Assembly (NCBI RefSeq): GCF_054482595.1 | Contig: NZ_CM137008.1 | Length of the DNA: 64,000 bases | Reading direction: 5' to 3' (one strand) | In this document: one piece after another, positions 6,832 to 36,915 of the stretch | How the letters are laid out: every line of letters begins with the position of its first letter | Numbering within the stretch: position 1 is the stretch's first letter | The notes under the pieces: model-generated | Told to the model about the DNA's origin: nothing | Databases searched by the model: none | What the model saw: only the letters and a program-made list of their open reading frames with translations | Program-made: the position numbers and the translations under genes

Positions 6832-8130
<1,299 letters not shown>

Positions 8131-8139
8131 GCAAACAAT

Positions 8140-8170
8140 GTCGGATGCGGCGCGAGCGCCTTATCCGACC
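8140..8170. repeat. REP (palindromic unit) in lacY-lacA intergenic region
   Basis: gtcggatgcggcgcgagcgccttatccgacc. Confidence 0.7.
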
Positions 8171-8195
8171 AACATATCAGGACGGAATGATCGCA

Positions 8196-8807
8196 ATGAA
8201 CATGCCAATGACCGAAAGAATAAAAGCAGGCAAGCTATTTACCGATATGTGCGAAGGCTTACCGGAAAAAAGACTTCGTGGGAAAACGTTAATGTATGAG
8301 TTTAATCACTCGCATCCATCAGAAGTTGAAAAAAGGGAAAGCCTGCTTAAAGAAATGTTTGCCACGGTAGGGGAAAACGCCTGGATAGAACCACCTGTCT
8401 ATTTCTCTTACGGTTCCAACATCCATATAGGCCGCAATTTTTATGCAAATTTCAATTTAACCATTGTCGACGACTACACGGTCACGATCGGTGATAACGT
8501 ATTGATTGCACCCAATGTTACTCTTTCCGTTACGGGACACCCTGTACACCATGAATTGAGAAAAAACGGTGAGATGTACTCTTTTCCGATAACGATTGGC
8601 AATAACGTCTGGATCGGAAGTCATGTGGTTATTAATCCAGGCGTCACCATCGGGGATAATTCTGTTATTGGCGCGGGTAGTGTCGTCATAAAAGACATTC
8701 CACCAAACGTCGTGGCTGCTGGCGTTCCTTGCCGGGTTATTCGCGAAATAAACGACCGGGATAAGCAATATTATTTCAGAGATTACAAAGTTGAATCGTC
8801 AGTTTAA
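8196..8807 (+). CDS. lacA: Galactoside O-acetyltransferase LacA (203 aa)
   Basis: MNMPMTERIKAGKLFTDMCEGLPEKRLRGKTLMYEFNHSHPSEVEKRESL..., hexapeptide-repeat acetyltransferase; ATG at 8196 chosen within ORF 8145..8807. Confidence 0.92.
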   Translation: MNMPMTERIKAGKLFTDMCEGLPEKRLRGKTLMYEFNHSHPSEVEKRESLLKEMFATVGENAWIEPPVYFSYGSNIHIGRNFYANFNLTIVDDYTVTIGDNVLIAPNVTLSVTGHPVHHELRKNGEMYSFPITIGNNVWIGSHVVINPGVTIGDNSVIGAGSVVIKDIPPNVVAAGVPCRVIREINDRDKQYYFRDYKVESSV

Positions 8808-8819
8808 ATTATAAAAATT

Positions 8820-8885
8820 GCCTGATGCGCTTCGCTTATCAGGCCTACAAGTTCAGTGATCTACATTAGCCGCATCCGGCATGAA
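8820..8885. repeat. REP pair downstream of lacA / cynX
   Basis: gcctgatgcgcttcgcttatcaggcctac ... gccgcatccggc. Confidence 0.65.
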
Positions 8886-8909
8886 CAAAGCGCAGGAACA
8901 AGCGTCGCA

Positions 8910-10064
8910 TTATGCCTCTTTGACCCACAGCTGCGGAAAACGTGCTGGTGCAAAACGCAGGGTTATGATCATCAGCCCAACGACGCACAGCGCATGAAAT
9001 GCCCAGTCCATCAGGTAATTGCCGCTGATACTACGCAGCACACCAGAAAACCACGGGGCAAGCCCGGCGATGATAAAACCGATCCCCTGCATAAACGCCA
9101 CCAGCTTGCCAGCAATAGCCGGTTGCGCAGAGTGATCGAGCGCCAGCAGCAAACAGAGCGGAAACGCGCCGCCCAGACCTAACCCACACACCATCGCCCA
9201 CAATACCGGCAATTGCAGCGGCAGCCAGATAAAGCCGCAGAAACCCACCAGTTGTAACGCCAGTGCCAACAGCAAAAGTTTGCGCCGATCCTGATGGCGA
9301 GCCATAGCAGGCATCAGCAAAGCTCCTGCGGCTTGCCCAAGCGTCATCAATGCCAGCAAGGAACCGCTGTACTGCGCGCTGGCACCAATCTCAATATAGA
9401 AGGCGGGTAACCAGGCAATCAGGCTGGCGTAACCACCGTTAATCAGACCGAAGTAAACACCCAGCGTCCACGCGCGAGGAGTGAAAACCACGCGAACCGG
9501 AGTGGTTGTTGTCTTGTGGGAAGAGGCGACCTCGCGGGTGCTTTGCCACCACCAGGCAAAGAGCGCAACAACGGCAGGCAGCGCCCACCAGGCGAGTGTT
9601 TGATACCAGGTTTCGCTATGTTGAACTAACCAGGGTGTCAGGGCGGCACCAAGCCCACCGCCGCCCATCAGAGCCGCGGACCACAGCCCCATCACCAGTG
9701 GCGTGCGCTGCTGAAACCGCCGTTTAATCACCGAAGGCATCACCGCCTGAATGATGCCGATCCCCACCCCACCGAGCAGTGCGCTGCTAAGCAGCAGCGC
9801 ACTTTGGGGGTAAAGCTCACGCATCAATGCACCGACGGCAATCAGTAACAAACTGATGGCGACGCTGCGACGTTCGCTGACATGCTGATGAAGCCAGCTT
9901 CCGGCCAGCGCCAGCCCGCCCATGGTAACCACCGGCAGAGCGGTCAACAGGGCAGCCACGCTAAAGCTCATTCCGCTTGCCTGGCGCAATTGCGGTAGCA
10001 GTGGCCCGACGGAGGTGAGCAGTGGTCGCATATTAAGACCAATCAGCACCAGAACCAGCAGCAT
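8910..10064 (-). CDS. cynX: Cyanate transporter CynX (MFS)
   Basis: Polytopic membrane protein downstream of cynS; start set at internal Met (MLLVLVLIGLNMRPLL...) to give the expected 384 aa. Confidence 0.85.
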   Translation of the reverse strand: MLLVLVLIGLNMRPLLTSVGPLLPQLRQASGMSFSVAALLTALPVVTMGGLALAGSWLHQHVSERRSVAISLLLIAVGALMRELYPQSALLLSSALLGGVGIGIIQAVMPSVIKRRFQQRTPLVMGLWSAALMGGGGLGAALTPWLVQHSETWYQTLAWWALPAVVALFAWWWQSTREVASSHKTTTTPVRVVFTPRAWTLGVYFGLINGGYASLIAWLPAFYIEIGASAQYSGSLLALMTLGQAAGALLMPAMARHQDRRKLLLLALALQLVGFCGFIWLPLQLPVLWAMVCGLGLGGAFPLCLLLALDHSAQPAIAGKLVAFMQGIGFIIAGLAPWFSGVLRSISGNYLMDWAFHALCVVGLMIITLRFAPARFPQLWVKEA

Positions 10065-10096
10065 CGTGAACGTCTTTTGATGGTTACGCATGGCTG

Positions 10097-10585
<489 letters not shown>

Positions 10586-10597
10586 TTAAAAATAAGG

Positions 10598-11257
10598 TTA
10601 CGCTGCGGTCGGTTGGCGTAGCGGTATGGCACAAACGCGAGGATTAGCGGCCAGTGGCACAAACTGGCGGGTTGCGCCGTCAAACGCTGCGATGCTGCCG
10701 CTTTCAATGTCGTAGACCCAGCCGTGCAGGGCGATCCGCCCCTCTTCGAGCGCCAGGCGCACCGATGGATGAGTTTGCAAATTAGACAACTGAGCAATGA
10801 CGTTTTCACGTACCATCGCCGCAGCTTTTGACGGTAAATCGGGATGCGGGCGCGCCTCATTAACGACGCGGGCTGAATCGGCATAACGCAGCCAGTGGGA
10901 GACGGCAGGCATATGGTCCATGCACTGACAGCTGGCAATGGCGGTCATTGCGCCACAGTTGGAATGACCGCAAATCACAATGTCAGATACCCGAAGCGCG
11001 GCGACGGCATACTCCACCGAAGCAGAAACGCCACCGGGTTCCGGCCCGTAGGAAGGGACGATATTGCCCGCATTGCGAATAACAAACAGATCGCCAGGCT
11101 CACGTTGCGTCACCAGCTCAGGGACCAGACGGCTGTCGGAGCAGGAGATAAAAAGTGTGCGCGGGCTTTGCTGTGTCGCCAGCTGTTTAAACAAGGCTTC
11201 CCGCTTCGGAAATGCCTCGCGCTGGAATTTAAGGAATCCATCAATAACCTCTTTCAC
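10598..11257 (-). CDS. cynT: Beta-class carbonic anhydrase CynT, 219 aa
   Basis: [49 protein letters not shown]... beta-CA signature CSDSR. Confidence 0.95.
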
Positions 11258-11366
11258 CGTTAACCTCTGTCTGTCTCTGGAATGAGAGGCAGACTACTCG
11301 CCGATTGTCATAAGGTAAAAGTCTCATTTATGATGAGTTCTATTGGATTTACTTATAGGTTGGCGA

Positions 11367-12266
11367 ATGCTCTCTCGACATATCAATTATTTTCTTGCCG
11401 TGGCTGAACATGGCAGCTTCACCCGTGCCGCCAGTGCGTTGCACGTCTCCCAGCCTGCGCTTTCCCAGCAGATTCGCCAGTTAGAGGAGAGTTTAGGCGT
11501 GCCGCTGTTTGACCGTAGCGGGCGAACGATTCGTCTCACTGATGCAGGAGAAGTCTGGCGACAGTACGCCAGCCGGGCGTTACAGGAACTGGGAGCGGGT
11601 AAACGGGCGATTCATGATGTTGCCGATTTGACGAGAGGATCGCTGCGTATCGCCGTCACCCCCACCTTTACGAGCTACTTTATCGGCCCCTTAATGGCGG
11701 ATTTCTATGCGCGCTACCCCGGCATCACGCTCCAGCTACAGGAAATGTCGCAGGAGAAAATCGAAGATCTGCTTTGCCGCGACGAGTTGGACGTTGGGAT
11801 TGCCTTCGCGCCTGTGCATTCGCCGGAGCTGGAGGCAATTCCTTTACTGACAGAAAGTTTAGCGTTAGTCGTGGCGCAACATCATCCGCTGGCCGCCCAT
11901 GAACAGATGGCGTTGAGTCGCTTGCATGATGAAAAACTGGTCCTGCTCAGCGCGGAATTTGCCACCAGAGAGCAAATTGACCACTACTGCGAGAAAGCGG
12001 GGCTGCATCCACAGGTGGTAATTGAGGCGAACTCAATTAGCGCGGTTCTGGAGCTGATTCGCCGCACTTCCCTTTCCACATTGTTACCAGCAGCGATTGC
12101 CACACAACATGACGGGCTTAAAGCTATTTCTCTTGCCCCGCCACTACTGGAGAGAACGGCGGTTTTGTTGCGGCGGAAAAATAGCTGGCAGACAGCCGCC
12201 GCGAAGGCATTTTTGCACATGGCGTTGGAGGAATGCGCGGATGTTGGCGGGAATGAATCACGGTAG
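11367..12266 (+). CDS. cynR: LysR-family regulator of the cyn operon CynR (299 aa)
   Basis: Divergent from cynTSX; Lys[45 protein letters not shown]; start set at internal Met of ORF 11343..12266. Confidence 0.88.
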
Positions 12267-12294
12267 CCGCTGACACAGGTCTGCGGCTGGAATT

Positions 12295-12357
12295 GCCTGA
12301 TGCGCTACGCTTATCAGGCCTACGAGTTCAGTGTAAGGCGTTCACGCCGCATCCGGC
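12295..12357. repeat. REP pair between cynR and codA
   Basis: gcctgatgcgctacgcttatcaggcctac ... gcgttcacgccgcatccggc. Confidence 0.7.
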
Positions 12358-12396
12358 ATAAACTACGCTCGCTTTGTCAACACACAGCCCAGCCGA

Positions 12397-13680
12397 TCAC
12401 CGTTTGTAATCGATGGCTTCTGGCTGCTCCAGATATACGGTGGTTTGTGCCGGTTGTGTGCTGGCGATCACCTTACCGCCACGTACAGAATAACGTACCG
12501 GAACCTGACGGCGCAGCGCATCAAATCCATTTTCAGCCGGCAGGATAATCAGGTTCGCGCTGTTTCCGGCGGCAATGCCGTAATCCTGCAAATTCAACGT
12601 CCTGGCGCTGTGGTGGGTGATTAAATTCAGGCCATCGTTAATCTGCCCATAGCCCATCAGCTGGCAAACATGCAGCCCCATATGCAGCACTTGCAGCATA
12701 TTCGCCGTTCCCAGCGGATACCACGGATCGAAGACATCATCGTGACCAAAGCAGACGTTAATGCCGGACTCCAGCATCTCTTTAACGCGCGTGATGCCGC
12801 GACGTTTTGGATACGTATCGAAACGTCCTTGCAGATGAATATTGACCAGCGGGTTGGCGACAAAGTTAATACCGGACATTTTCAGCAAGCGGAACAGGCG
12901 TGAGGTATACGCCCCGTTATAGGAGTGCATTGCCGTGGTGTGGCTGGCGGTGACTCGCGCGCCCATGCCTTCACGGTGCGCCAGGGCAGCAACGGTTTCG
13001 ACAAAGCGCGACTGCTCGTCATCGATCTCATCACAGTGAACGTCGATGAGACGGTCGTATTTTTGCGCCAGGGCGAAGGTTTTATGCAGCGACTCCACGC
13101 CGTATTCACGGGTAAATTCAAAATGCGGAATCGCCCCCACTACATCTGCCCCTAAGCGTAACGCCTCTTCCAGCAACGCTTCACCGTTGGGATACGACAA
13201 AATCCCTTCCTGAGGGAAGGCGACGATTTGCAGATCAATCCACGGCGCGACTTCCTGCTTCACTTCCAGCATTGCTTTCAGCGCAGTTAGCGTTGCATCC
13301 GAAACATCGACATGGGTACGCACATGCTGAATGCCGTTGGCAATCTGCCATTTCAGCGTTTGCCAGGCGCGTTGTTTCACATCGTCATGGGTTAATAACG
13401 CTTTGCGCTCGGCCCAGCGTTCAATGCCTTCAAACAGCGTGCCGGACTGATTCCAGTTCGGTTGTCCGGCGGTTTGCGTGGTGTCCAGGTGAATATGCGG
13501 CTCCACAAATGGCGGTATAACTAAACCTTGTTCGGCATCCAGGCTGTTTTCAGTTATGGGCATCACGCCGGATTGCGCATCAATGGCGCTGATTTTTCCG
13601 TCCTGCAGATGAATCTGCCACTGCCCCTCTTTGCCTGGTAACCGGGCGTTAATAATTGTTTGTAAAGCGTTATTCGACAC
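12397..13680 (-). CDS. codA: Cytosine deaminase CodA (427 aa, GTG start)
   Basis: [38 protein letters not shown]... amidohydrolase; start overlaps the codB stop. Confidence 0.92.
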
Positions 13681-14929
13681 TGTTAGCCTCCACATGCGTC
13701 ATTGCTGCTGTCGTTTTACGATTCAAAATCGGGTTAAGGATCAGATAGCTCAGCGCGCCACCTAATACCGCGTTGACCGGAACAATTCCCGGTAACCAGT
13801 GGCCTGCAGCAATCCCCAAGGCGACCGCCAGAATCGCCACCCAATTGACACTCATCATACGCGTGGTCGCAAAGTGCTCATAGCGGCGACGGTTCATCAG
13901 ATAGTCGGCAATGATCACGCCACCCACTGGAGGAATAGCTGCCGAAAGGAAGGTCAACCAGCCGACAAAATTGTTATACAGCCATAATGCGCAGACCGTA
14001 CCGATAATACCGTTGATTACCGAAAGGGTTTTGCTCGACATCCCGGTAATGTTGGCGAAACCTAAACCCGACGCATAGAGCGCGTTATCGTTGGTGGTCC
14101 AGATATTTAGCCCCAGCACCACAATCGCAGGCAACAGCAGGCCCTGAGCAATCATCACATCAGAGATATCCGCCAACCCCAGTGCCGCCGCTCCCGCTGC
14201 ACCGAAAATAAACATCAACGAGTTGCCGAGGAAAAAGGCCACCATCGCCACCAGCACCGCCAGTTTGGCATTGCGACCAAACCGGACAAAGTCAGCGGTG
14301 AGCGTACCCGCACTGATAAATGACCCCACAACCAGCGCCAGCGCGACATTGAAATCTAACGGTTGTGCGGGAACGACCGCTTTTAATGCGTCCAGGCCGC
14401 CCATGCCGTTAACAGCCAGCCACACGGAATAACCACCAAGGCAGGCGATAGCCGGAACCGCAATCACCGAAAGAACCGTCAGCGCCGAAATGCCAAAGAA
14501 GACGGTGACGGTCATCAGTAAACCGGAAACGGCAATCAGCAAATTAATATCCAGCCCGGTTGCCTTGCCCACCGGAATGGCAAACATCGCCACACCGACG
14601 CCAAACCAGCCAACCTGGGTGCCGCCCAGCAGCAGTGAAGGCAGCCATGAGCCTTTAACACCAAACGAGAAGCGAGCAAGAAGATGGGTGGTCAGGCCGG
14701 TTTTTGCACCAATGTAACCGAGAAATGAAGTGTAAATACCGAGGAGAAGATTACCGATGAGAACTGCGAGGAAGAAATCATGATAGCTAAGACCGGTTCC
14801 GAGAGTGCCGCCGGTCCACATACTGGCGGAAAAGAAGGTTAATCCCAGCATGACGAACGTCAATGCCAATACCCCTTTCCGCGCCGACTGCGGGACTGGC
14901 CCCTGGCTAAAGTTGTTATCTTGCGACAC
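13670..14929 (-). CDS. codB: Cytosine permease CodB (NCS1 family, 419 aa)
   Basis: [41 protein letters not shown]..., 12-TM transporter directly upstream of codA. Confidence 0.93.
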
Positions 14930-25143: not shown

Positions 25144-25959
25144 CTAAAGAGTGTAGCGGATTTTAACGTGCTTATTTACAGGATAATATCTGTCACCTAA
25201 TTCCTGCACTCTATTAGATATCCATTCATTTAATCGTGCATCATCTCTGTATGTTTTTACGTCCAGAACAGAGAGCAATAACATCACCAGTGATTCAGGA
25301 AAAACAGGGTAGATATTTTTTAAGTGTAATAATAATCCATGCGCAAGCGCCTGCTTAATGGGCGCGTCTGTCTCCGGAATAGACGACATTTCGCGAAGCC
25401 ATTTTTCCACATGCATACACTCTTTCCCTTTAGGGAAAAGTCTCAGCAAAGGCATATGGTGTTCAAGAAGAATACATTTGCAATCTGTTCGCACTGAATT
25501 GATAAACTGCACTAATTTCTTAAGCCCGGTAAAGCGTCCAGCCTGCACATTTGCTTTAATATCAAGAAACGCATCATCCTAGTCATATACCCAAACTGTC
25601 CCTTTTTGATTTTCAAGTATGCGAAAAACAAACTTAACCGGGTGATCAGGGTAATCCATCCAGTCATAAAATCCAGGGAAATCATTAAACTGCACATTTA
25701 TGGTGAGTGCGTTATCGTCTGACCACTCACAGTCTCGTACGGCAGCCATGAGATGAATGAGTTTGTCGTCATCGACTAAATCATCACGACAATCATAAGG
25801 ATAATCATAATATTGTTTAATCAAAACCTTGAATATATCGACACAGGAAACCAGGGAGCTTTTGATATCCTCTGGTAACTGATTGTTTTTAACCGTATTA
25901 AGTATGCTTTGTTGCGTATATGGCATCAAATTATTGTGCGGAGCTTTTAATGATATCAT
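25144..25959 (-). pseudogene. yahL: yahL-like gene interrupted by an in-frame TAG (two in-frame ORFs of 126 and 134 codons)
   Basis: ORFs 25579..25959 and 25144..25548 are in the same frame, separated by a TAG at 25579-25581 and 10 codons; combined length about 270 aa equals intact YahL. Confidence 0.55.
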
Positions 25960-26201: not shown

Positions 26202-27251
26202 TCAGTCTGTTAGTGTGCGATTATCGATAACAAAACGATATTTCACATCACCACGCAGCATTCGCTCATAGGCTTCATTAATTTGATCGGCCCGAATCAT
26301 CTCTATATCAGCCACGATGCCATGTTCGGCGCAAAAATCGAGCATCTCCTGAGTTTCTGGAATGCCGCCAATCATAGAACCGGCTATCGCACGGCGTTTC
26401 ATGATCAGGTTGAAAACTTCCGGCGATTTATGCGGTGTCGCAGGCGCACCAACCAGCGTCATGGTGCCATCACGCTTCAGCAAGGTGGTAAAATCGTCGA
26501 GATTATGTGGCGCAGCTACTGTATTCAAAATGAAATCGAAACTCTTCAGATGAGCCGCCATCTCATCGGCATTGCGTGAGTTAACAACTTCATCGGCCCC
26601 CAGGGCTTTTGCCGCTTCGCGTTTTGCCTCAGAAGTGGTAAATGCCACCACATGTGCCCCCATCGCGTGGGCCAGCTTAATCCCCATATGTCCCAGACCG
26701 CCGATGCCGACCACGCCCACTTTTTTACCCGGTCCGGCCTGCCAGTGGCGCAACGGGGAGTAAGTAGTGATCCCCGCGCACAGTAATGGGGCTACCGCTG
26801 CCAGCTGCTCTTGCGGGTGACGAATACGCAGAACATATCGCTCATGAACGACGATCTGTTGTGAGTAGCCGCCCAGCGTATGGCCCGGTTCGTCCGGCGT
26901 CGGCGAGTTATAGGTGCCGGTCATGTGATCACAGTAGTTTTCCAGCCCGTCTTCACACTCTTCGCAATGTTTACAACTGTCGACAATGCAGCCGACACCG
27001 ACCAGATCGCCCGGCGCATATTTTTTTACCTGATCACCAACGGCTACCACACGCCCCACAATTTCATGACCCGGCACGCAGGGATAAACCGTCCCCGCCC
27101 ACTCGGAACGGACCTGGTGGAGATCGGAATGGCAGACGCCACAGTAAGCGATTTCGATTTTGACATCATTCGGTCCCGGTTCACGCCGTGTGATATCCAT
27201 CGGTTCAAGTGGTTGTTTAGCGGAATATGCACCAACAGCTTTGATCTTCAT
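26202..27251 (-). CDS. yahK: Zn-dependent NADPH aldehyde reductase / alcohol dehydrogenase YahK (349 aa)
   Basis: MDR/CAD-family motifs GVCHSDLH, GHEIVG, GIGGLGH. Confidence 0.9.
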   Translation of the reverse strand: MKIKAVGAYSAKQPLEPMDITRREPGPNDVKIEIAYCGVCHSDLHQVRSEWAGTVYPCVPGHEIVGRVVAVGDQVKKYAPGDLVGVGCIVDSCKHCEECEDGLENYCDHMTGTYNSPTPDEPGHTLGGYSQQIVVHERYVLRIRHPQEQLAAVAPLLCAGITTYSPLRHWQAGPGKKVGVVGIGGLGHMGIKLAHAMGAHVVAFTTSEAKREAAKALGADEVVNSRNADEMAAHLKSFDFILNTVAAPHNLDDFTTLLKRDGTMTLVGAPATPHKSPEVFNLIMKRRAIAGSMIGGIPETQEMLDFCAEHGIVADIEMIRADQINEAYERMLRGDVKYRFVIDNRTLTD

Positions 27252-27337
27252 TGTGTTTACTCCTGATTAGCTATGTGTATTTGGCGACGCCTGATATGTC
27301 ATCGCGGCAAAACGCGTCCATTGAATATAGCCAATAT

Positions 27338-28294
27338 TTAAACCACCCGATCCAGCCCCAACATGCCGCGAGCCTGAATGAAACAGAGCAGCAACGTTCC
27401 CCATAAGGCCATCGTCAGGTAGGGGCTTATACCGAGAATATTGAAGCCGCTTTCAATAATTTGCAGAAGAAACAGCGCCAGCACCATACCAATTATCCGC
27501 CCGCTGCCGCCGTCCGGATTAACCCCGCCGAGTACTGCCGCGAGGATTGACACCAGCAAGTACGATTCGCCATAAGAGGCCTTAGCCGAGTTGAGTTTCG
27601 ACATCATCAAAAATGCCGCTACCGCACAAAGCAAGGCGGAAATGACATAAACCCAAATCAGCACCCGACGAGTGTTAATGCCGGAGTAAAGTGTTGCTCG
27701 TTCGTTAGACCCAATCAGGTAAATGGCTTTACCGAGCGGCGTTTTCTCCAGCAATATCCACAGCCCCAGTGCCACTGCGGCAAACAACCACATCGGTAGC
27801 GGAATACCGAACCATTGCGCATGATTCAACCACAGCACCCATGAGGGATAATTGGCAATGGCGCTACCACCTGTCACCAGAATATTTATCCCTTTGAGCA
27901 ACGTCATCATCCCAAGCGTTGCAAGAATTGGCGACACTCGAATACCAGCAATCAATACGCCGTTACATAAACCGATTATCACCGCCGCGCCAGCGCCCGC
28001 CAGTAACGTAGCGACAACCGTAGCAATACCCGGTGGATACTGAGTCGCCACCCACGCCATCACCAGTGAACAGGCGTTAGCAGTGGCTATAATTGACAAG
28101 TTAATGCCACCGCAAAGCATGGTCACCGCCATAGCCAACGCCAGAATGCCCAGCACGGGCATTTGCGAAGCGACGGACTGGAAATTACTTATCGACCAGA
28201 AAATCTCCGGCATAGTAATGCTGAACGCGGCAACAGTTAGCACCAGCAGGCCGATCAAGTAAAACTCAACGTTATTACGCCACGATTTTTTCAT
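27338..28294 (-). CDS. ABC transporter permease (CUT2/ribose-type)
   Basis: Polytopic membrane protein; start overlaps upstream stop in an ATGA arrangement. Confidence 0.8.
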   Translation of the reverse strand: MKKSWRNNVEFYLIGLLVLTVAAFSITMPEIFWSISNFQSVASQMPVLGILALAMAVTMLCGGINLSIIATANACSLVMAWVATQYPPGIATVVATLLAGAGAAVIIGLCNGVLIAGIRVSPILATLGMMTLLKGINILVTGGSAIANYPSWVLWLNHAQWFGIPLPMWLFAAVALGLWILLEKTPLGKAIYLIGSNERATLYSGINTRRVLIWVYVISALLCAVAAFLMMSKLNSAKASYGESYLLVSILAAVLGGVNPDGGSGRIIGMVLALFLLQIIESGFNILGISPYLTMALWGTLLLCFIQARGMLGLDRVV

Positions 28295-29262
28295 AGCAGA
28301 CTCCGGTTCTGATGCTGACTCCACGCCGTGGCACTAATGCTGGCAACGATGATGATGCCGGTGATCAATGTTTGCCAGTAAGACGAGACTCCCAATAAAT
28401 TTAGCCCGTTTTGCATCACTGCCAACAACACCACGCCGAGCAAAGTACCGGTTAACGTGCCGCGCCCGCCGAGCAAACTAGTGCCGCCAAGCACCACCGC
28501 AGCCAGTACTGTCAGCTCATAACCCAGAAGAGAATCGGGGGCGACAGTCATCACCGTCCACGACTGCACTACACCCGCAGCGCCAGACATCAATCCCATA
28601 TAGCCATAGACGAAAAGTTGCAGTTTCAGCACGCTAAAGCCGATGCGACTGGCTGATTCGCGGTTCCCGCCAAGGGCATAAATTTTGCGCCCTACACTGG
28701 TGAAATTCATGATAAACGCTGTTAGCAGCACCACCGTAATCATGGCGATCAGCGGCAGACCAAGGCCATAGTCATAGCCATCAGCATCGGTGTACTTGAA
28801 CAACATAACCCCCTGCTCAAACCACGGCGGAAAGTCGTACAGCCACACACCTTTACTCAACCATAACAGCAGGCCATAGAAAATATTCAGCGTCGAGATA
28901 GTGATGATGATAGAAGGCACCCGTAGGCGATTAACCAGTAAGGCGTTAATTAAGCCAAGTAAAATGCCGATGCAGCCCGCCAGTGCAAACGCGACAGCGA
29001 AGTTGCCACCAATTTTTTGCAGCAACAGCACCATGCCGTATTGCGCCATGATGGTCATTGCTGGAAACGAAATATCAATTCCACCGGAAATCAACACCAC
29101 AAACAAACCACAGGCGAGAATAGTCAACATGGCATAGTTATTGGCGAGATCGTACAAATTACCGAATGTCAGAAACTCGTCGCTGCGCCAGGCAAGGCCA
29201 ACAAACAGCACCACAATCAGTAATGCCAGCCAGAATTCATGGCGTTTTTTCAGTTCAGCCAT
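28291..29262 (-). CDS. ABC transporter permease (CUT2/ribose-type)
   Basis: 323-aa polytopic membrane protein, overlaps ATPase gene stop. Confidence 0.8.
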   Translation of the reverse strand: MAELKKRHEFWLALLIVVLFVGLAWRSDEFLTFGNLYDLANNYAMLTILACGLFVVLISGGIDISFPAMTIMAQYGMVLLLQKIGGNFAVAFALAGCIGILLGLINALLVNRLRVPSIIITISTLNIFYGLLLWLSKGVWLYDFPPWFEQGVMLFKYTDADGYDYGLGLPLIAMITVVLLTAFIMNFTSVGRKIYALGGNRESASRIGFSVLKLQLFVYGYMGLMSGAAGVVQSWTVMTVAPDSLLGYELTVLAAVVLGGTSLLGGRGTLTGTLLGVVLLAVMQNGLNLLGVSSYWQTLITGIIIVASISATAWSQHQNRSLL

Positions 29263-30739
29263 TTACCACCTCCGCAATCCTGGCCTGAGAACTGCTGTCA
29301 GGCAGGAAGCTATGGGTGATCTGTCCTTTTTGCATTACCAAAATCCGGTGGCTTTGATACCACGCTTCTTCAATTTCATCGCAGATCATCAATACCGCAA
29401 TGCCATGAGCCGCCAGATCGCTGATAATGCCGTATATTCCTGCTTTGTTGGCGATATCAACACCGACTGTCGGGCTATCGAGAATCAACAGTCGTGGCCC
29501 AATCGCCAGCCATTTGGCGATCGATACTCGCTGCGCGTTACCACCAGAAAGCGTATTCACCGGGAGATGAGGATCAGAGACTTTGATGGTCAATGCCTTG
29601 ATTAGCCTGTCCACCAGGTCACGCACTTTAGTTTCACTCAGAAAGCCGAAGCGATCTTTTACCTTGTGAAAAACAGTGCTAATGATGTTGTCTTCAATAG
29701 ATTGCGCCATCACCAAACCGCGCGACATGCGATCTTCCGAAACATAACCAATACCGTGGCGGATGGCGTCCTGGTTACTATGCAGTGTAACCAGCTGGCC
29801 GTTGATGAGGATCTCGCCAGAATCCGGTCGGGTCATACCAAACAGACTCAGACATAATTCCGTGCGCCCCGCACCAAGCAGGCCAACAATCGATACCACT
29901 TCGCCCGCTTCCACCCGCAAGTTAATATTTAGATATTCCCCATGACGACTTAAATTACGCACCTCCAGCACCGGGGTGCTGGATTTTCCCTGCCACAACT
30001 CTCGCACCTGATATTCAAACTCCTGGCCGGTCATCAGGAAACCGAGTTGTTTTGTGGTCATCTCTGCAGCCGGAAAAGTCCCGACCAGCTCACCATCTTT
30101 CAGCACTGAAATACGGTCGGAAACTTCCATCACTTCTTCCAGACGATGACTGACGAAGACCACGCAGATCCCGCGTTCCCGCAATTGATGCACCACCTGT
30201 AATAACCCTTGCACTTCCTGATGGGTCAGCGAAGCGGTTGGTTCATCCATCACGATCAACCGTGCGTCCTGCGCCAGTGCACGGCAAATTGCCACCAGCT
30301 GACAGCGGGCAATTGAAAGCTCAGAAACGAGCGTATCCAGTGGCAATGTGACGTTAATACTGGTCATTGCCGCCTGCGCCACCTCACGCAGACGACGTCG
30401 GTTAACAAACAGACCGTGGTGATAGTGATTCACGGCGATATTCTCCCAGACACTCAGGTTAGGAAATAAAGAGAGGTCCTGATAAATCACCTGAATCCCC
30501 TGCGCCACCGAAGCGGCGGGTGTCAGCTTTGACCATTTTTTCCCACCAAGCGTAATTTCCGCTCCCTCATCCGGGCGATAAACACCGGACATAATTTTGA
30601 TCAACGTCGATTTACCACAGCCGTTTTGCCCGGCAAGGCAGTGCACTTCACCCGACATAAAGTCGAGAGAAACATCGCGCAGCGCTCGCGTGGCATGAAA
30701 CGTTTTGTTGATATGACGAAGGGAAAGGAAGGTTTCCAT
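29255..30739 (-). CDS. Sugar ABC transporter ATP-binding protein with duplicated ABC domains
   Basis: Two Walker A motifs (GQNGCGKST and a second degenerate domain), LSGG signatures; about 495 aa typical of RbsA/LsrA-type ATPases. Confidence 0.85.
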   Translation of the reverse strand: METFLSLRHINKTFHATRALRDVSLDFMSGEVHCLAGQNGCGKSTLIKIMSGVYRPDEGAEITLGGKKWSKLTPAASVAQGIQVIYQDLSLFPNLSVWENIAVNHYHHGLFVNRRRLREVAQAAMTSINVTLPLDTLVSELSIARCQLVAICRALAQDARLIVMDEPTASLTHQEVQGLLQVVHQLRERGICVVFVSHRLEEVMEVSDRISVLKDGELVGTFPAAEMTTKQLGFLMTGQEFEYQVRELWQGKSSTPVLEVRNLSRHGEYLNINLRVEAGEVVSIVGLLGAGRTELCLSLFGMTRPDSGEILINGQLVTLHSNQDAIRHGIGYVSEDRMSRGLVMAQSIEDNIISTVFHKVKDRFGFLSETKVRDLVDRLIKALTIKVSDPHLPVNTLSGGNAQRVSIAKWLAIGPRLLILDSPTVGVDIANKAGIYGIISDLAAHGIAVLMICDEIEEAWYQSHRILVMQKGQITHSFLPDSSSQARIAEVVNG

Positions 30740-30787
30740 AACATCCCCTGGCAATAAGAATCGGGGCTTTCGCCCCGAAGAAATGGA

Positions 30788-31774
30788 TTAATAAAGTGAG
30801 TCGATATTGTCTTTGTTGACCAGTAATACCTTATGGAAACGGATAATTCGCTTATCCATATCTACGTCGGCCTTACCCAGATTCTGCATTTCTAATCCAG
30901 GTTTGATCTCTTCACCCTTCAGCAACGTGCTGGCGACGGCTGCGAGTGCGTAACCTGCAGAGGCCGGATCGTAAGTAATCCCTTCGGTGATATCACCACT
31001 TTTAATCAGTGATGCCGCCTGTGAAGGGATCATCATGCCATAGACTGCGACTTTATTTTTCGCCCGTTTCTCTTTCACCGCACGTCCCGCGCCAATCGGA
31101 CCGTTTGAACCAAAGGAGACAACCGCTTTTAAGTCAGGATAGGTTTTCATCAGGTCCAGTGTGGTACGACGTGAGTCATCCACACTCTCGGCAACCGGCA
31201 TGCGGCGGGTAACTTCATGCATATCCGGGTAATGCTCTTTCTGGTATTTCACCAGCAAGTCAGCCCATAAGTTATGCTGCGGCACGGTCAAACTACCCAC
31301 GTAAATCACATAGCCGCCCTTGCCCCCCATGCGTTTCGCCATATGCTCAACATATTCAGCGGCAAATTTTTCGTTATCAATGATTTCGATATCCCAGTTA
31401 GCACTTGGCTGACCGGGGGATTCGTTGGTCAGAACCACAATTCCGGCATCTCGCGCTTTTTTGAATACCGGTTCCAGCACGTTGGCATCGTTTGGCACGA
31501 TAGTAATTGCATTAACCTTACGGGCGATTAAATCCTCAATAATTTTAACCTGTTGCGGAGCATCAGTACTTGAAGGCCCCACCTGTGACGCATTAACACC
31601 AAAGGCTTTACCCGCCTCAACCACACCTTCGCCCATGCGATTAAACCACGGCATACCATCGACTTTAGAAATATTCACCACGACTTTTTCCGCTGCCTGG
31701 AGCGGCGCAGAAATTAGCGCAGCGCCTAATAACAGCGAAGACACCATATTGATAACAAAACGTTTATTCATCAT
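30788..31774 (-). CDS. Periplasmic sugar-binding protein, LsrB/RbsB-like
   Basis: Signal peptide MMNKRFVINMVSSLLLGAALISAPLQA; C-terminus RIIRFHKVLLVNKDNIDSLY resembles LsrB ...VIFNKDNIDKYDF (recalled from memory). Confidence 0.8.
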   Translation of the reverse strand: MMNKRFVINMVSSLLLGAALISAPLQAAEKVVVNISKVDGMPWFNRMGEGVVEAGKAFGVNASQVGPSSTDAPQQVKIIEDLIARKVNAITIVPNDANVLEPVFKKARDAGIVVLTNESPGQPSANWDIEIIDNEKFAAEYVEHMAKRMGGKGGYVIYVGSLTVPQHNLWADLLVKYQKEHYPDMHEVTRRMPVAESVDDSRRTTLDLMKTYPDLKAVVSFGSNGPIGAGRAVKEKRAKNKVAVYGMMIPSQAASLIKSGDITEGITYDPASAGYALAAVASTLLKGEEIKPGLEMQNLGKADVDMDKRIIRFHKVLLVNKDNIDSLY

Positions 31775-32024
31775 TTCAGCCTCATTGCAGGGTAGTCAGG
31801 AAGTGTTCGCCCAAATTAGCGCGCTGGAGAGAATAAGAATTTTCGAATATTTTTATGCAGAATAAACAGCCCTATTTCAGGCAGCTATTAAAAATATGGT
31901 TATAAATATGGACAAAACGGGCAGCAACAATAAGTGTGACATTCATCACGTTAAAAATAGCAAAATAAACAAAATTAGCGATATTTTATGTGTGTGAGTT
32001 TATTTCGCGTATATAAATAGTTAT

Positions 32025-32435
32025 CTACACAACGTCAATAAGGGCATATTCTTCAAAGATAACGTCCATTTCTGGTGAATAGCTTCCTTCTGCCTGGAAA
32101 AAACGACGGTGTTCATTACGCCAATATTCAAGACTGAGGTCACCTTCACCTTCCTTACGGGCAAGCTCCGCGGTGACATCAGAAAAGCGCAGTAAATGCA
32201 GGCCAATCACTCTGATAACACATACAGGCTCACCACGGCTATTTTCTACAATCTTATACTCACCAATCATCGGAAATGAGTTGTCTTCAATACATCCTGC
32301 CAGCGAACCACAGGAAGCTGTTTTAACACCAGTCGCAATCAACGTTGCGAGGTGATCGGCCAACGCTGCAGAATCGCCAAAAGTACAAAAGGAAGCATGG
32401 GGATATTTTTGTAAGATTTTTTCTTTTATGGTCAT
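32025..32435 (-). CDS. ASCH-domain protein
   Basis: 136-aa protein with a beta-barrel ASCH-like core; start set at MTIKEKILQKYP. Confidence 0.55.
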   Translation of the reverse strand: MTIKEKILQKYPHASFCTFGDSAALADHLATLIATGVKTASCGSLAGCIEDNSFPMIGEYKIVENSRGEPVCVIRVIGLHLLRFSDVTAELARKEGEGDLSLEYWRNEHRRFFQAEGSYSPEMDVIFEEYALIDVV

Positions 32436-32733
32436 GAGAATATTTTCGCGATTACGGAAAAACAAATCACATCTTAATTACTGTTGGTAACCATCAGCAA
32501 GAGTATCATTGGTTTTTCGATACTGAATCTTTTTTATCCGAAGCAGGTCACATTTATGGCCTGATAAATACCTTTGTTAAAACTCACTTTTGTGTATTTC
32601 TCTCAAATAATCCCCTGGAAATTATGCCGGGAGATTATAAAGTTCAGGATCATTCATTAGCAAACCATTCCCGCCCCACTCCCTGGGGCTTAAATCTCTT
32701 ACTATTCACCGTTGCAGGCGTTTCAAATGCGCA

Positions 32734-34116
32734 TCAACCTGCCACACTCCCCCACACCAGTTGCCCTTTATGGAACGTTGCGGTTCTCGGCGAGATACGC
32801 GCCACCGCCTCGGCGGAACAGGAGGCGTCCACCAGCACAAAGCTGGCGTCATCCTGCGCTTTTGGCCATACACGCTCGCCTTTTTCATTCAGCGGCAATA
32901 CATCGCCAGTGGCTAGAAACAGCGAACGGGAGAGGTTCTGTTCGTTAGGACGAATATAGAGCTGCGCGTAGAGATTGGCTTTTTCCAGCATGTCGCCCAG
33001 ACCATAAGGCGACCAGTGGTCGATAACGCTGTCAGTGCCAGTCATCACTTTTACGCCTTTGTCGTGTAACTGTTTGAGCGGCATATGCAGCGTACCAATC
33101 GGCACCGTCGAGGCGATAGAAATTTGCTGCACCACCATCCGGTTAGCCAGTTCATCTACCTGTTGCTCGTTGAGTGTTGCCAGCGCAAAGGCGTGACTGA
33201 TGGTCAGCTTGCCCTTCAGCTGTGGCGTTTTCTCTACCGTTTCAACCATATAATTGATGGCTGCCACGCCCGACGGAGTGGTTTCGTGCAGGTGAATATC
33301 GACGCCTTTGTCGTAGTCCAGCGCAATCTGGAACATGGTATCGAGGGATTTTTCCATCGCGCCATCGACACTGGTCGGGTCCAGCCCGCCGACGTAATGC
33401 GCCCCCGCCTGCATCGCTTCGCGCATTAAGGGTTCCGATTTCGACAGCAGCAAACCGTGCTGCGGGAAGGCGACGATTTCACACTCGAAGCCCGCCTGAC
33501 GTCGCGCCAGCACCGCCTGCAAATTTTGCAGATTTTTCAGGCCGGAAACCGGTTCGATATTGCAGTGGCTGCGGGCAATGGTGGTGCCTTTCGACTGCAA
33601 TAAATCAATCAGTTTTTCTGCCCGCTCCTGAGTGTACGGTTGCAGCTCCGGCAGCATTTTCTGCTCGAGTTTGATCATGTCCTGGATGGTGGTGCCTGCC
33701 GGGCGATTGAGCGAGCGCCACGGCCCGCCGTAAAAGGTTTTGTCGAGATGAATATGCATGTCGCGGGTGGTGGGCAGCATCAGCTTATCGCCAGCGTCAT
33801 AGTGCGGCAGCGTGGCATCCGGGTGCTGCTTATTCTCGCGCAGCGCGACAATTTTGCCGTTCTGAATCTCCACGGTCTGGCGCGCCGTGCGGGTCTGCAC
33901 CGCCACGCCATTTTCGTAGTCAAATCCAGTTTCCAGCAGCACGTTGTCGAGATAGTAATGCGGGTCAGTGATTTTCATGGTGTTGTTCGCTTCGCAGTTT
34001 GTGGTGCCAGAGACCGCCGCATGGGCGAGCGGCACAGAGGTACCAAACAGCGCGGCGGCGGTGACCATCTTACCGCTCTGGCTCAGAAATTCACGGCGGC
34101 TATTGCTTTCTTTCAT
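32734..34116 (-). CDS. yahJ: Tat-exported amidohydrolase-family deaminase YahJ (460 aa)
   Basis: Twin-arginine signal SRREFLSQSGKMVTAAALFG; metal-dependent amidohydrolase motifs (HIHLD, DIHLHE). Confidence 0.85.
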   Translation of the reverse strand: MKESNSRREFLSQSGKMVTAAALFGTSVPLAHAAVSGTTNCEANNTMKITDPHYYLDNVLLETGFDYENGVAVQTRTARQTVEIQNGKIVALRENKQHPDATLPHYDAGDKLMLPTTRDMHIHLDKTFYGGPWRSLNRPAGTTIQDMIKLEQKMLPELQPYTQERAEKLIDLLQSKGTTIARSHCNIEPVSGLKNLQNLQAVLARRQAGFECEIVAFPQHGLLLSKSEPLMREAMQAGAHYVGGLDPTSVDGAMEKSLDTMFQIALDYDKGVDIHLHETTPSGVAAINYMVETVEKTPQLKGKLTISHAFALATLNEQQVDELANRMVVQQISIASTVPIGTLHMPLKQLHDKGVKVMTGTDSVIDHWSPYGLGDMLEKANLYAQLYIRPNEQNLSRSLFLATGDVLPLNEKGERVWPKAQDDASFVLVDASCSAEAVARISPRTATFHKGQLVWGSVAG

Positions 34117-35126: not shown

Positions 35127-35484
35127 GCCTGATGCGCTACGCTTATCAGGCCTACAATTCTCGTGCCACTCGTAGGCCGGATAAGGCGTTCACGCCACAT
35201 CCGGCAATGGTGACAAATGCCTGATGCGCTACGCTTATCAGGCCTACAATTCTTGCGCCATTCGTAGGCCGGATAAGGCGTTCACGCCGCATCCGGCAAT
35301 GGTGACAAATGCCTGATGCGCTACGCTTATCAGGCCTACAAATTCTTGCGCCACTTGTAGGCCGGATAAGGCGTTCACGCCGCATCCGGCAATGGTGACA
35401 AATGCCTGATGCGCTACGCTTATCAGGCCTACAGATTCTTGCGCCACTTGTAGGCCGGATAAGGCGTTCACGCCGCATCCGGCA
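35127..35484. repeat. BIME / REP array, about 4 tandem units of about 94 bp
   Basis: gcctgatgcgctacgcttatcaggcctaca ... gccggataaggcgttcacgccgcatccggc repeated at about 35127, 35218, 35312, 35406. Confidence 0.9.
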
Positions 35485-35496
35485 TGAACATGTAGG

Positions 35497-36915
35497 TCAG
35501 ACGCCGTAACGTTCGCACCAGCCAAGAATGGCTTTCTCGAAGCAGGCGAATGGCGGATGCACAATGCCCGCGCCAATCATGCCGACGCCCGCATCTTTAT
35601 GGGCGATGGCGGTGTTGATCACCGGCAGAATGCCGCTGCTACCCACGCGGGTGATGTCGATTGCCGACGGCACGCCCATAAAACCGAGCAGCGGAATGGT
35701 GACGTTGGGGTTTTCGCCAAGGGTGATTTCGCGCATCTGACGGGAGAAATCGATAGCCTCTTCCACCGTGCCGCCCACCAGCGCAACGATTGCAGGCGCG
35801 GTCGCCATGGCAAATCCGCCAATACCGTAGGTTTCGGTGATGGCGCTGTCGCCGATATCCAGCCCCGAATCTTCCGGCTTATAACCAGCAAACATCGGGC
35901 CGATGACCTGCTGCGCTGGGCCGGTAAACCACTGCCCCGGCAGGCCGCTGACCCGCAGGCCGAACTCGACGCCGTTACGCGCCATGGTGGTAACGACGGT
36001 GCTGTATTCGATGCCGTGCGCCGCATCCATCGCCGCTTTACACATCGCCATCCACGTCGGGCCGGAGAAGTAATCGCTACTGGCAACAAACTCAAACACT
36101 TCGCGCTGTTGCGCGACGGAATAGCCCGCCTGGATAATCCCCGGCGTCAGCGCCTGAATCAGCAGCGTCGTCCCGGCGTTATTGCGGTTATGGCACTCAT
36201 CGCCCATATGCAGCGCCTGCGCCAGCATTAAGCGCAGATCGATTTCGCCGATAATTTTCATCGCGTCGCGCAGTATTGGTCCCTGCACATCACGCATCCA
36301 GTTCAGGCGGTCAATCACGCTCTGGTCGTTAGCGCCCATACGCAAAATCTTCGCCATCTGCTCGCTCATGTTGGTATAAGCGATGTTGCCGTAGGTTTTG
36401 TTTTTTACGATGTGCATAAACATCGAGGCCGAGGTAACACCCGCCATCGATCCCACGCAGTCGTGCTCGTGACACGGCGAGAAGGTGATCTCCCCGGAAG
36501 CCGCCAGTTCAGCCGCCTCGTCGAGATCTTTCGCCAGTCCTTCGAACACCAGCGCTCCGGTGACCGCGCCTTTCATCGCGCCGCACATTTTTTCCCAGGT
36601 GATCGGCGGCCCGGCGTGAAGAATGGTTTTCGGCGTCATGCCCGGCACCACGTTAATCGCCTGCTCAAAACCAATCAGCACCGGATGCGACTGGATAATG
36701 CGCTCCAGCGCCTGCTGGTTAGCGGCGGCGATTTTGTCTGCCAGCGGCGAATCGGCAATGTTGTCCAGCGCCTGCACCACCTGCATATTGCCCTGCCCCG
36801 GCGGCGTCCAGTCGAGTTGAGTCACTTCTACATGCTGCTTTTTCAGGTCATCGCTAAACATGGCGATGCCGACGTTAATAACGTTCAATGGTTGGCTAAA
36901 CAGTGACTGGCTCAT
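35497..36915 (-). CDS. yahG: DUF1116-family protein YahG (YlbE paralog)
   Basis: 472 aa; start overlaps yahF stop (ATGA). Confidence 0.8.
   Translation of the reverse strand: MSQSLFSQPLNVINVGIAMFSDDLKKQHVEVTQLDWTPPGQGNMQVVQALDNIADSPLADKIAAANQQALERIIQSHPVLIGFEQAINVVPGMTPKTILHAGPPITWEKMCGAMKGAVTGALVFEGLAKDLDEAAELAASGEITFSPCHEHDCVGSMAGVTSASMFMHIVKNKTYGNIAYTNMSEQMAKILRMGANDQSVIDRLNWMRDVQGPILRDAMKIIGEIDLRLMLAQALHMGDECHNRNNAGTTLLIQALTPGIIQAGYSVAQQREVFEFVASSDYFSGPTWMAMCKAAMDAAHGIEYSTVVTTMARNGVEFGLRVSGLPGQWFTGPAQQVIGPMFAGYKPEDSGLDIGDSAITETYGIGGFAMATAPAIVALVGGTVEEAIDFSRQMREITLGENPNVTIPLLGFMGVPSAIDITRVGSSGILPVINTAIAHKDAGVGMIGAGIVHPPFACFEKAILGWCERYGV

Follow-up and report, generated by a model that had tools for sequence, protein, structure and literature searches.

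What does the sugar importer encoded between yahJ and yahK bring into the cell, what turns it on, and why is it missing from Escherichia coli K-12? These questions are raised by a 64,000-nucleotide stretch of NCBI RefSeq assembly GCF_054482595.1 (contig NZ_CM137008.1), here called the window, in which an ATP-binding cassette (ABC) transporter locus occupies positions 27338-31774. An original prediction, made from the sequence, had described an LsrB-like importer of unclear substrate and regulation which, together with an ASCH-domain gene, was inserted relative to K-12. On careful comparison, the four transporter genes proved to be those of a system characterised earlier, Accessory L-arabinose Uptake (Aau), and the window locus adds no new system. 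We hold with high confidence that 27338-31774 is an intact copy of E. coli aauABCD, a CUT2-family ABC importer, and this confidence covers also the proposed scheme of its action, its predicted AraC/CRP promoter and a history in which K-12 would have lost it by deletion.

Identity of the locus with the Aau importer

The binding protein of the window is identical to AauA in Protein Data Bank (PDB) entry 9I1M at 327 of 328 residues (E=3.8e-214), the sole difference being D200 in the window versus V200, and its similarity to the Klebsiella structure 3D02 is likewise very high. The surrounding 8-kb region is collinear with that of E. coli O157:H7 at 98.9% identity, with the same annotated genes and the same position from yahJ and the ASCH-domain gene to yahK; this is therefore the same locus as the published Aau, in another strain. 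Over the 8-kb stretch compared, no difference separates the window from E. coli XH990 (100% identity). Aau has been described by Cottam et al. (Nat Commun 2024 and 2025; PMC11127945, PMC12307932), who provided the AauA structure 9I1M, and it comprises Z0415-Z0419 on O-island 17 of enterohaemorrhagic E. coli (EHEC), namely a binding protein, the ATPase Z0416-7 and two permeases (PMC11127945). Substrate and regulation, originally regarded as unclear, were thus both published in 2024-2025 for AauABCD: induction by L-arabinose through AraC, binding of D-ribulose with a dissociation constant (Kd) of 2 µM, and AraB as the kinase. The genes are as follows, the coordinates of yahJ and yahK being those of the open reading frame (ORF) listing of the window.

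32734-34116, minus strand: yahJ
32025-32435, minus strand: ASCH-domain ORF (YhfF-type, 136 aa); the longest ORF extends to a TTG at 32465
30788-31774, minus strand: aauA (Z0415 orthologue), periplasmic binding protein with signal peptide, matching 9I1M
29255-30739, minus strand: aauB (Z0416-7 orthologue), fused double-domain ABC ATPase, intact; the longest ORF extends to a TTG at 30754
28291-29262, minus strand: aauC (Z0418 orthologue), permease matching AraH/RbsC permease models
27338-28294, minus strand: aauD (Z0419 orthologue), second permease; the longest ORF extends to a GTG at 28324, and the stop is at 27338-27340
26202-27251, minus strand: yahK

The layout of five co-directional minus-strand genes between yahJ and yahK (ASCH-domain gene, binding protein, ATPase and two permeases) agrees in order and boundaries with what had been predicted. 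The ATGA-type overlaps were borne out between the two permease genes aauC and aauD; the overlap of aauB and aauC is one of 8 nt (ATGGCTGA). The family assignment, a CUT2-type sugar importer absent from K-12, is likewise upheld by family models and by comparison to K-12: the binding protein is of type I with many CUT2 structure matches, the ATPase carries both of its nucleotide-binding domains on one polypeptide chain, and the permeases are of RbsC/AraH type. With the CUT2 ATPase models AraG, YtfR, XylG and RbsA, AauB obtains 380-420 bits; it aligns end to end with AraG, XylG and RbsA and remains under every equivalog cut-off. AauC shares 99% identity with its O157 counterpart and reaches 150-157 bits with the permease models AraH and RbsC, and AauD matches those of RbsC and LsrD.

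In the published work, the Kd of AauA is 1.98 µM for D-ribulose and 598 µM for L-arabinose, and the AauA crystal contains alpha-D-ribulose, modelled as a ring stacking on Trp43, between Trp43 and His167, with contacts to Lys37, Glu118, Glu196 and Ser223 (PMC12307932). All six ligand residues listed there (K37, W43, E118, H167, E196 and S223) are present in the window AauA, and the earlier suggestion of a furanose importer accords with the ring held in this structure. The aau promoter has L-arabinose as its sole inducer and is silent in an araC mutant, and aau influences fitness in the mouse gut (PMC11127945). D-ribulose itself does not induce aau; given L-arabinose, it is imported by Aau, phosphorylated by AraB and passed to the pentose phosphate pathway (PMC12307932).

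Applied to the window, AauA would bind alpha-D-ribulose tightly (Kd ~2 µM) and L-arabinose weakly (~600 µM), and AauBCD would drive import at the expense of ATP. Having neither a regulator nor a kinase of its own, aau would be transcribed when L-arabinose acts via the core-genome activator AraC, and the imported D-ribulose would be phosphorylated by the L-ribulokinase AraB and enter the pentose phosphate pathway. No kinase, repressor or processing gene was found within the locus, by annotation or among the ORFs from yahJ to yahK, because the core ara regulon would provide both regulator and kinase in trans. The predicted absence of lsrK/lsrR/lsrFG-like genes accordingly stands, the neighbours being yahJ, the ASCH gene and yahK alone.

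The ATPase deserves separate mention. Codon 87 of aauB, for the Q-loop glutamine of the first domain, is CAG (Gln) in the window versus TAG in O157:H7 OK1, where this amber codon lies at window-equivalent 30479-30481 (7480-7482 of the extracted OK1 locus, L001). A premature stop at nucleotide 259 has been published for the TUV93-0 ATPase, and the authors used strain ZAP193 to avoid it; the OK1 amber codon is this very stop. The window ATPase, as that of ZAP193, is without it and differs in this respect from Aau of EDL933/TUV93-0, where codon 87 is amber. The exact amber allele occurs in 139 of 2,218 aau-positive complete genomes, and owing to this codon Aau is probably non-functional in many O157:H7 strains.

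A predicted aau promoter and Aau-type cassettes in other genera

Upstream of aauA, inside the 250-bp ASCH-aauA spacer, an araBAD-like promoter is predicted from sequence blocks and cross-genus conservation, with the following elements.

31859-31950, minus strand: putative aau promoter as a whole
31935-31950, minus strand: CRP site cGTGATGAATGTCACA, a 9/10 match to the CRP consensus
31907-31923, minus strand: putative AraC half-site I1 TGCCCGTTTTGTCCATA, 11 nt past the CRP site
31886-31902, minus strand: putative AraC half-site I2 TAACCATATTTTTAATA, separated from I1 by a 4-nt spacer
31859-31864, minus strand: candidate -10 TATTCT, 21 nt past I2

The araBAD promoter consists of a CRP site, araI1 (TAGCATTTTTATCCATA), 4 nt, araI2 (TAGCGGATCCTACCTGA) and a -10, the reference sequence being a 100% match between araC and araB on E. 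coli chromosomes. The same arrangement is seen upstream of aauA, and aau promoters align in register with the authentic E. coli araI1-araI2 and -10. When upstream sequences from six genera (Escherichia, Klebsiella, Franconibacter, Mangrovibacter, Symbiopectobacterium and Aeromonas) were aligned, mean identity was 44% and the invariant columns were GTGA-N6-TCAC, TCCAT and then TA-C. Among the relatives described below, 37 of 60 Aau-type loci have the tandem pattern TYCATR-N4-TARC ahead of their aauA orthologue, always on the coding strand, versus none of 20 loci of the Rbl type (~60% identity), the background being 0.002 per 490 nt as estimated from the remaining 2.5 Mb of locus sequence. These 37 loci are related and not independent events; they come from several families, and the rest of their spacer is not conserved. 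AraC dependence of aau is published genetics (PMC11127945), with which the window sequence, given its conserved CRP-I1-I2 arrangement at 31886-31950, appears consistent; AraC and CRP would act directly at the araBAD-like promoter.

The published transcription data help to interpret a further element of the operon.

30761-30778, minus strand: GC-rich hairpin in the aauA-aauB spacer (TCGGGGCGAAAGCCCCGA), flagged as terminator-like

In the supplementary L-arabinose RNA-seq list of PMC11127945, Z0415 is induced 26.5-fold, Z0417 43-fold and Z0418 7-fold, with induction falling along the operon. Since Z0417 is still induced 43-fold, the hairpin does not act as a strong terminator; probably it stabilises or attenuates the transcript within the operon, as is common for such elements behind genes for binding proteins. 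No terminator-like site was found in the 86-bp aauD-yahK spacer, and weak read-through into yahK is thus possible. Co-expression of yahK with the transporter had been suggested earlier. The corresponding locus tag is presumably Z0420, which is a guess on our part. Neither 'yahK' nor 'Z0420' appears in the available text of the RNA-seq list in the PMC11127945 supplement, for which the amber-bearing strain TUV93-0 was used, and to the extent of that text co-expression is not supported.

To place the cassette in a wider context, 80 loci were kept from a scan of species representatives. The comparisons covered 78 loci from outside Escherichia and, by type, 60 loci of Aau type and 20 of Rbl type. 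The four-gene order is conserved in many groups, which differ in the identity of their binding protein.

Klebsiella, Franconibacter, Mangrovibacter: binding protein 90-92% identical
Symbiopectobacterium, Aeromonas: binding protein 83-86% identical
Yersinia, Providencia, Budviciaceae, Atlantibacter: binding protein 74-80% identical
Pasteurellaceae, Vibrio: binding protein 65-77% identical
Citrobacter amalonaticus, Pluralibacter, Cedecea, Serratia, Pantoea: ~60% group, FGGY pentulose kinase directly downstream

The last group appears to correspond to the Rbl type described for Citrobacter rodentium (ROD_24811-61). Rbl resembles Aau in its CUT2 order of binding protein, double ATPase and two permeases and in its likely substrate, D-ribulose, and Rbl-type binding proteins are ~58-63% identical to AauA. 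However, the transporter genes of Rbl-type loci are immediately followed by a dedicated FGGY pentulose kinase gene (695 bits versus a cut-off of 409 in C. amalonaticus), whereas no kinase lies between yahJ and yahK in the window, and transcription of Rbl responds to D-ribulose whereas that of aau does not (PMC12307932). A contig of 4.7 kb, SFEK01000152.1 ('MAG: Bacteroidales bacterium'), encodes AauABCD proteins 98-99% identical to those of E. coli; most likely it comes from E. coli and was mis-binned.

In three groups, Providencia, Budviciaceae and Pasteurellaceae, araC itself adjoins the cassette, and there the regulator scores 343-492 bits against the NCBIfam AraC equivalog (cut-off 208). 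The Providencia cassettes (loci L015 and L017, 8001-16980) stand directly beside divergent araC and araB-araA, within the L-arabinose utilisation locus, and in Budviciaceae araC is directly upstream, with araB a few kb further upstream. The Pasteurellaceae (loci L041, L048, L050-L053 and L056-L060, ~6900-14000) show araC-aauABCD, and in most of them an FGGY kinase comes next whose score is well under the L-ribulokinase and xylulokinase cut-offs; such loci may contain all that is needed for utilisation of a pentulose under AraC control. The araI1-araI2-like site conserved in Aau-type cassettes of Enterobacterales and Pasteurellaceae, together with araC adjacency across families, suggests that AraC control is old in Aau-type cassettes. 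We lean, with some reserve, towards the view that it is the ancestral wiring of a widespread Aau family and no EHEC-specific 'hijack', the E. coli locus being an orphaned relic of an old pentose/pentulose importer of the ara regulon, lost by deletion in the K-12/B2 haplotype.

The same adjacency bears on the nature of the substrate. A cassette beside araC-araB-araA in Providencia, and directly downstream of araC in Budviciaceae and Pasteurellaceae, would fit a third system for arabinose uptake within the ara regulon, with L-arabinose or its minor furanose form as the main physiological substrate and D-ribulose binding as incidental; induction of the operon by L-arabinose only, through AraC, and the published partial rescue of an araE mutant on L-arabinose by an aau plasmid point the same way. 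The published affinity for D-ribulose is, however, more than 200-fold higher, deletion of aau causes no growth defect on L-arabinose, and the fitness gain arises from Aau-dependent use of D-ribulose. Moreover, the FGGY kinase that follows the Pasteurellaceae cassette reaches 44.8 bits versus the L-ribulokinase cut-off of 428, which suggests a different pentulose. We consider L-arabinose unlikely to be the main substrate and retain D-ribulose as the sugar imported by Aau.

The ASCH-domain gene and the K-12 allele

The ASCH ORF matches Pfam PF04266 over residues 27-133 (E=1.3e-22), and its product shares this fold family with the YhfF/COG4405 ASCH proteins, whose PDB representatives 1T62 and 3S9X are both without assigned function. 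Homologues of 136 aa, named YhfF by the Joint Genome Institute, are widespread in Enterobacterales, and the invariant motifs of the family are G-x-K-T and EGEGD. The N4-acetylcytidine amidohydrolase YqfB uses the active set Lys21/Thr24/Glu74/Arg26. A weak profile alignment (hhalign, probability 1%) places the invariant E95 of the ASCH family opposite the catalytic acid Glu74, and a manual alignment on GxKT equates K38 with Lys21, with Ser or Thr at the Thr24 position; the ASCH protein, however, has Gly at the position of the oxyanion Arg26, and phmmer found no similarity between the ASCH protein and YqfB, so that homology is not demonstrable. Our best guess, made with low confidence, is that the ASCH protein may be a small hydrolase or a nucleobase-binding protein unrelated to sugar transport. 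Upstream of the gene lies a possible promoter.

32634-32663, minus strand: promoter-like site TTGCTA-18-TATAAT, a consensus match alone (10/12), within the stretch of deletion 2 described below

The ASCH gene could be regarded as part of the transporter unit, as a functional accessory of Aau that processes, for example, a modified sugar or nucleoside imported by it. Gene and cassette are jointly present or absent in E. coli (2,212 and 2,213 of 5,426 complete genomes, respectively), no terminator is predicted between the ASCH gene and aauA, and Z0414, whose identity with the ASCH gene is probable but unconfirmed, is induced 3.7-fold by L-arabinose in the available text of the PMC11127945 supplement. 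The co-occurrence, however, reflects a single shared deleted haplotype, and outside Escherichia neither ASCH, yahJ nor yahK stands beside the cassette in any of the 78 loci. Homologues in Yersinia, Pseudenterobacter and Kosakonia lie in unrelated neighbourhoods, Escherichia sp. E2593 keeps the ASCH gene without aau, and the predicted AraC promoter is downstream of the ASCH gene. An accessory role is thus quite improbable. As judged from sequence, the ASCH gene is a YhfF-type gene independent of the Aau cassette, lost in the K-12/B2 haplotype through a second deletion. The induction of Z0414 ('hypothetical protein') is not explained by the promoter layout proposed here for aau.

The locus is indeed lacking in K-12, where alignment gives a yahJ-yahK distance of 376 bp. 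The K-12 spacer, however, is no clean empty site and consists of three recognisable pieces of window sequence.

27252-27409: first piece, 99% identity, including the last 23 codons of aauD (27341-27409)
ASCH-aauA spacer, as far as the right half of the CRP site: second piece, ~75 nt aligning with many changes
32015-32074: third piece, the last 16 ASCH codons (AEMDIIFEEYALIDVV and stop), also in SE15; the sequence resumes at 32671-32673

The B2 strain SE15 has its junctions exactly as K-12. In Escherichia sp. E2593, of a cryptic clade, yahJ is followed by an intact ASCH gene (89% identical), an aauD remnant from 27411 and then yahK. The aauD remnants of K-12, SE15 and E2593 translate to ALWGTLLLCFIQARGMLGLDRVV and a stop, and that of K-12 is annotated as a partial pseudogene by the NCBI Prokaryotic Genome Annotation Pipeline (PGAP). 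This C-terminus is conserved in the AauD of Klebsiella and Franconibacter, in unrelated genomic contexts, and the remnant is therefore genuine aauD sequence and not pre-existing host DNA. Three allelic states can be distinguished, namely the full locus as in the window, deletion 1 only, and deletions 1 and 2 together.

27410-31918: deletion 1 (K-12, B2 and E2593), from within the putative AraC half-site I1 to codon 295 of aauD, the upper end being approximate
32075-32672: deletion 2 (K-12 and B2 only), most of the ASCH gene and its upstream region

Contrary to the original description of the locus as inserted, the K-12, B2 and cryptic-clade alleles keep a truncated aauD 3' end, and K-12 also an ASCH 3' end, which makes the K-12 state a deletion derivative and not a pre-insertion site. 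On the evidence of these aligned alleles, the locus is ancestral relative to K-12, and K-12 is the derivative. The locus would already have been present in an Escherichia ancestor, a 4.5-kb deletion having removed aau in the K-12/B2 haplotype. Of the 5,426 complete E. coli genomes, 2,205 have the 8 kb in full, and K-12-like genomes hold ~35% of it in three pieces; the near-equal counts of transporter and ASCH gene are as expected if one doubly deleted haplotype explains nearly all negatives.

Aau has been described as horizontally acquired (PMC11127945), and the 'O-island' view of a recent island inserted into a K-12-like yahJ-yahK junction could draw on its presence in only ~41% of complete E. 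coli genomes, on the lack of any non-coli Escherichia species representative among the top matches, and on the unrelated contexts of the closest relatives outside the genus (Klebsiella and Franconibacter, 91-92%). However, every 'empty' allele carries the truncated aauD 3' end together with a diverged ASCH-aauA spacer, the one junction being shared by phylogroups A and B2 and the cryptic clade, and K-12 retains the ASCH remnant besides. No integrase, insertion sequence (IS) element, tRNA or flanking direct repeat was found at the borders by annotation and repeat search, and the G+C of the locus (0.49-0.53) matches that of yahK and yahJ. A recent island was rejected on these grounds as very improbable, and deletion in the K-12 lineage is retained.

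Certain points weigh against the overall reading of the locus as an AraC-controlled D-ribulose importer lost from K-12. Its function is carried over from EHEC ZAP193 on near-identity, and the physiological substrate is debatable, as the cassette is induced by L-arabinose only and sits within ara loci in other taxa. For the promoter, a search of the window with the single AraC half-site consensus gave no enrichment (33 matches versus 43 expected), and the A-boxes of the window half-sites are imperfect, TGCC and TAAC versus TAGC. The CRP consensus alone is likewise not significant (3 matches versus 1.9 expected); with both at chance level, only the tandem arrangement and its conservation across genera are informative. 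No AraC binding site is reported in PMC11127945 or PMC12307932, and we infer direct binding at these bases. Finally, apart from E. coli strains, no Escherichia locus is among the 80 kept from the species-representative scan, so that an older horizontal acquisition by the E. coli/cryptic-clade ancestor is possible.

Some further observations concern the deleted alleles. The retained ASCH-aauA spacer (31925-32014) of K-12, SE15 and E2593 shows many substitutions and indels relative to the full allele, whereas the flanking remnants are 97-99% identical, which suggests that the deleted haplotype is old or derives from a diverged lineage. An inverted repeat of 25 nt (76% complementary; 27385-27409 and 32763-32787) has one arm ending at the deletion-1 junction and the other in the yahJ 3' end; as this second arm matches no junction, the repeat is probably due to chance. 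In E. coli SCPM-O-B-8794 (locus L030, 1-8000) the order is aauABCD-yahK-yahL, and ASCH and yahJ were not detected in the 8 kb upstream, where candidate aldo-keto reductase-like, ykgEFG-like and LuxR-like ORFs, recognised by eye, point to a different rearrangement.

Outside the locus, yahL (25144-25959, minus strand) has a premature stop at codon 127 (25579-25581), which is Gln in K-12, and is split into ORFs of 126 and 134 aa. The yahI-yahG interval at 35175-35489 contains three full and one partial tandem elements of the repetitive extragenic palindromic (REP) or bacterial interspersed mosaic element (BIME) type, which yield spurious repetitive ORFs at 35152-35576. These elements score 76-78 bits against the Rfam model naRNA4 (gathering score 59.5), and the Rfam scan found no RNA family inside the locus.

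LsrB and other related systems

Comparison with known systems helps to delimit the Aau family. AraFGH, the classical ABC importer for L-arabinose in the AraC regulon and one of high affinity, shares with Aau the regulator and inducer, AraC with L-arabinose, apparently CRP as well, and the CUT2 family, and AraG is the best model for the ATPase (420 bits); it differs in having one permease where Aau has two, the binding proteins belong to unrelated families, no AraF model being among the AauA matches, and Aau binds L-arabinose weakly. Compared with characterised CUT2 proteins, as had been proposed, the binding protein is nearest to AauA itself, whose substrate is published, and the LsrB and RhaS models both remained under their cut-offs. 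The RhaS model TIGR02637, of the rhamnose system RhaSTPQ, is the best-scoring NCBIfam model, yet its 137 bits lie far under the cut-off of 342, no rhamnose genes are present at the Aau locus, and the solved ligand is D-ribulose; a rhamnose-binding protein was therefore rejected.

The resemblance to LsrB, the receptor of the quorum-sensing signal autoinducer-2 (AI-2), is real but weak (28% identity across 295 aligned residues, E=8e-24), and it spans the whole protein rather than the C-terminus alone, to which it had been ascribed. LsrACDB has the same CUT2 architecture, and its binding protein falls with AauA in one broad LsrB/RhaS-like branch (E ~1e-23); it has a different ligand and a different regulator, and lsrK, lsrR, lsrF and lsrG are not at the Aau locus. 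The LsrB contacts K35, D116, D166, Q167, P220 and A222 align to K37, E118, Q166, H167, F221 and S223 of AauA, only the lysine being identical, and the NCBIfam LsrB model NF011937 gives 111 bits versus a cut-off of 384. AI-2 (as R-THMF) and ribulofuranose are chemically similar furanoses, a point in favour of an AI-2 importer. Functional LsrB receptors keep all six AI-2-contacting residues and are more than 63% identical to LsrB of Salmonella (S. Typhimurium), whereas relatives less than 36% identical, with substitutions of D166 and A222, have an incomplete lsr gene set and are linked to rhamnose uptake (PMC3386761). The RefSeq product name assigned by PGAP, 'autoinducer 2 ABC transporter substrate-binding protein', was set aside, as it clashes with the solved ligand and with these properties of LsrB receptors. 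For all that this name and the LsrB structures among the PDB matches (E ~1e-23) would speak for an LsrB-like importer of AI-2, such a function is extremely unlikely in view of the low identity, the single conserved contact, the sub-threshold score, the missing lsr genes a crystal structure of AauA that holds D-ribulose, and a Kd of 2 µM for this sugar (PMC12307932).

What the locus means for E. coli follows largely from the published system. Where L-arabinose is present, Aau lets gut E. coli, and EHEC above all, scavenge D-ribulose and so gain a competitive advantage, as shown experimentally and structurally. To this the present analysis adds a concrete AraC/CRP site proposed for aau, and the K-12 state as a deletion changes the story of a 'horizontally acquired O-island'. 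Ancestral AraC control, if true, would add a nuance to the published 'hijacking' narrative of a family whose control by AraC would be shared well beyond EHEC, and no new system.

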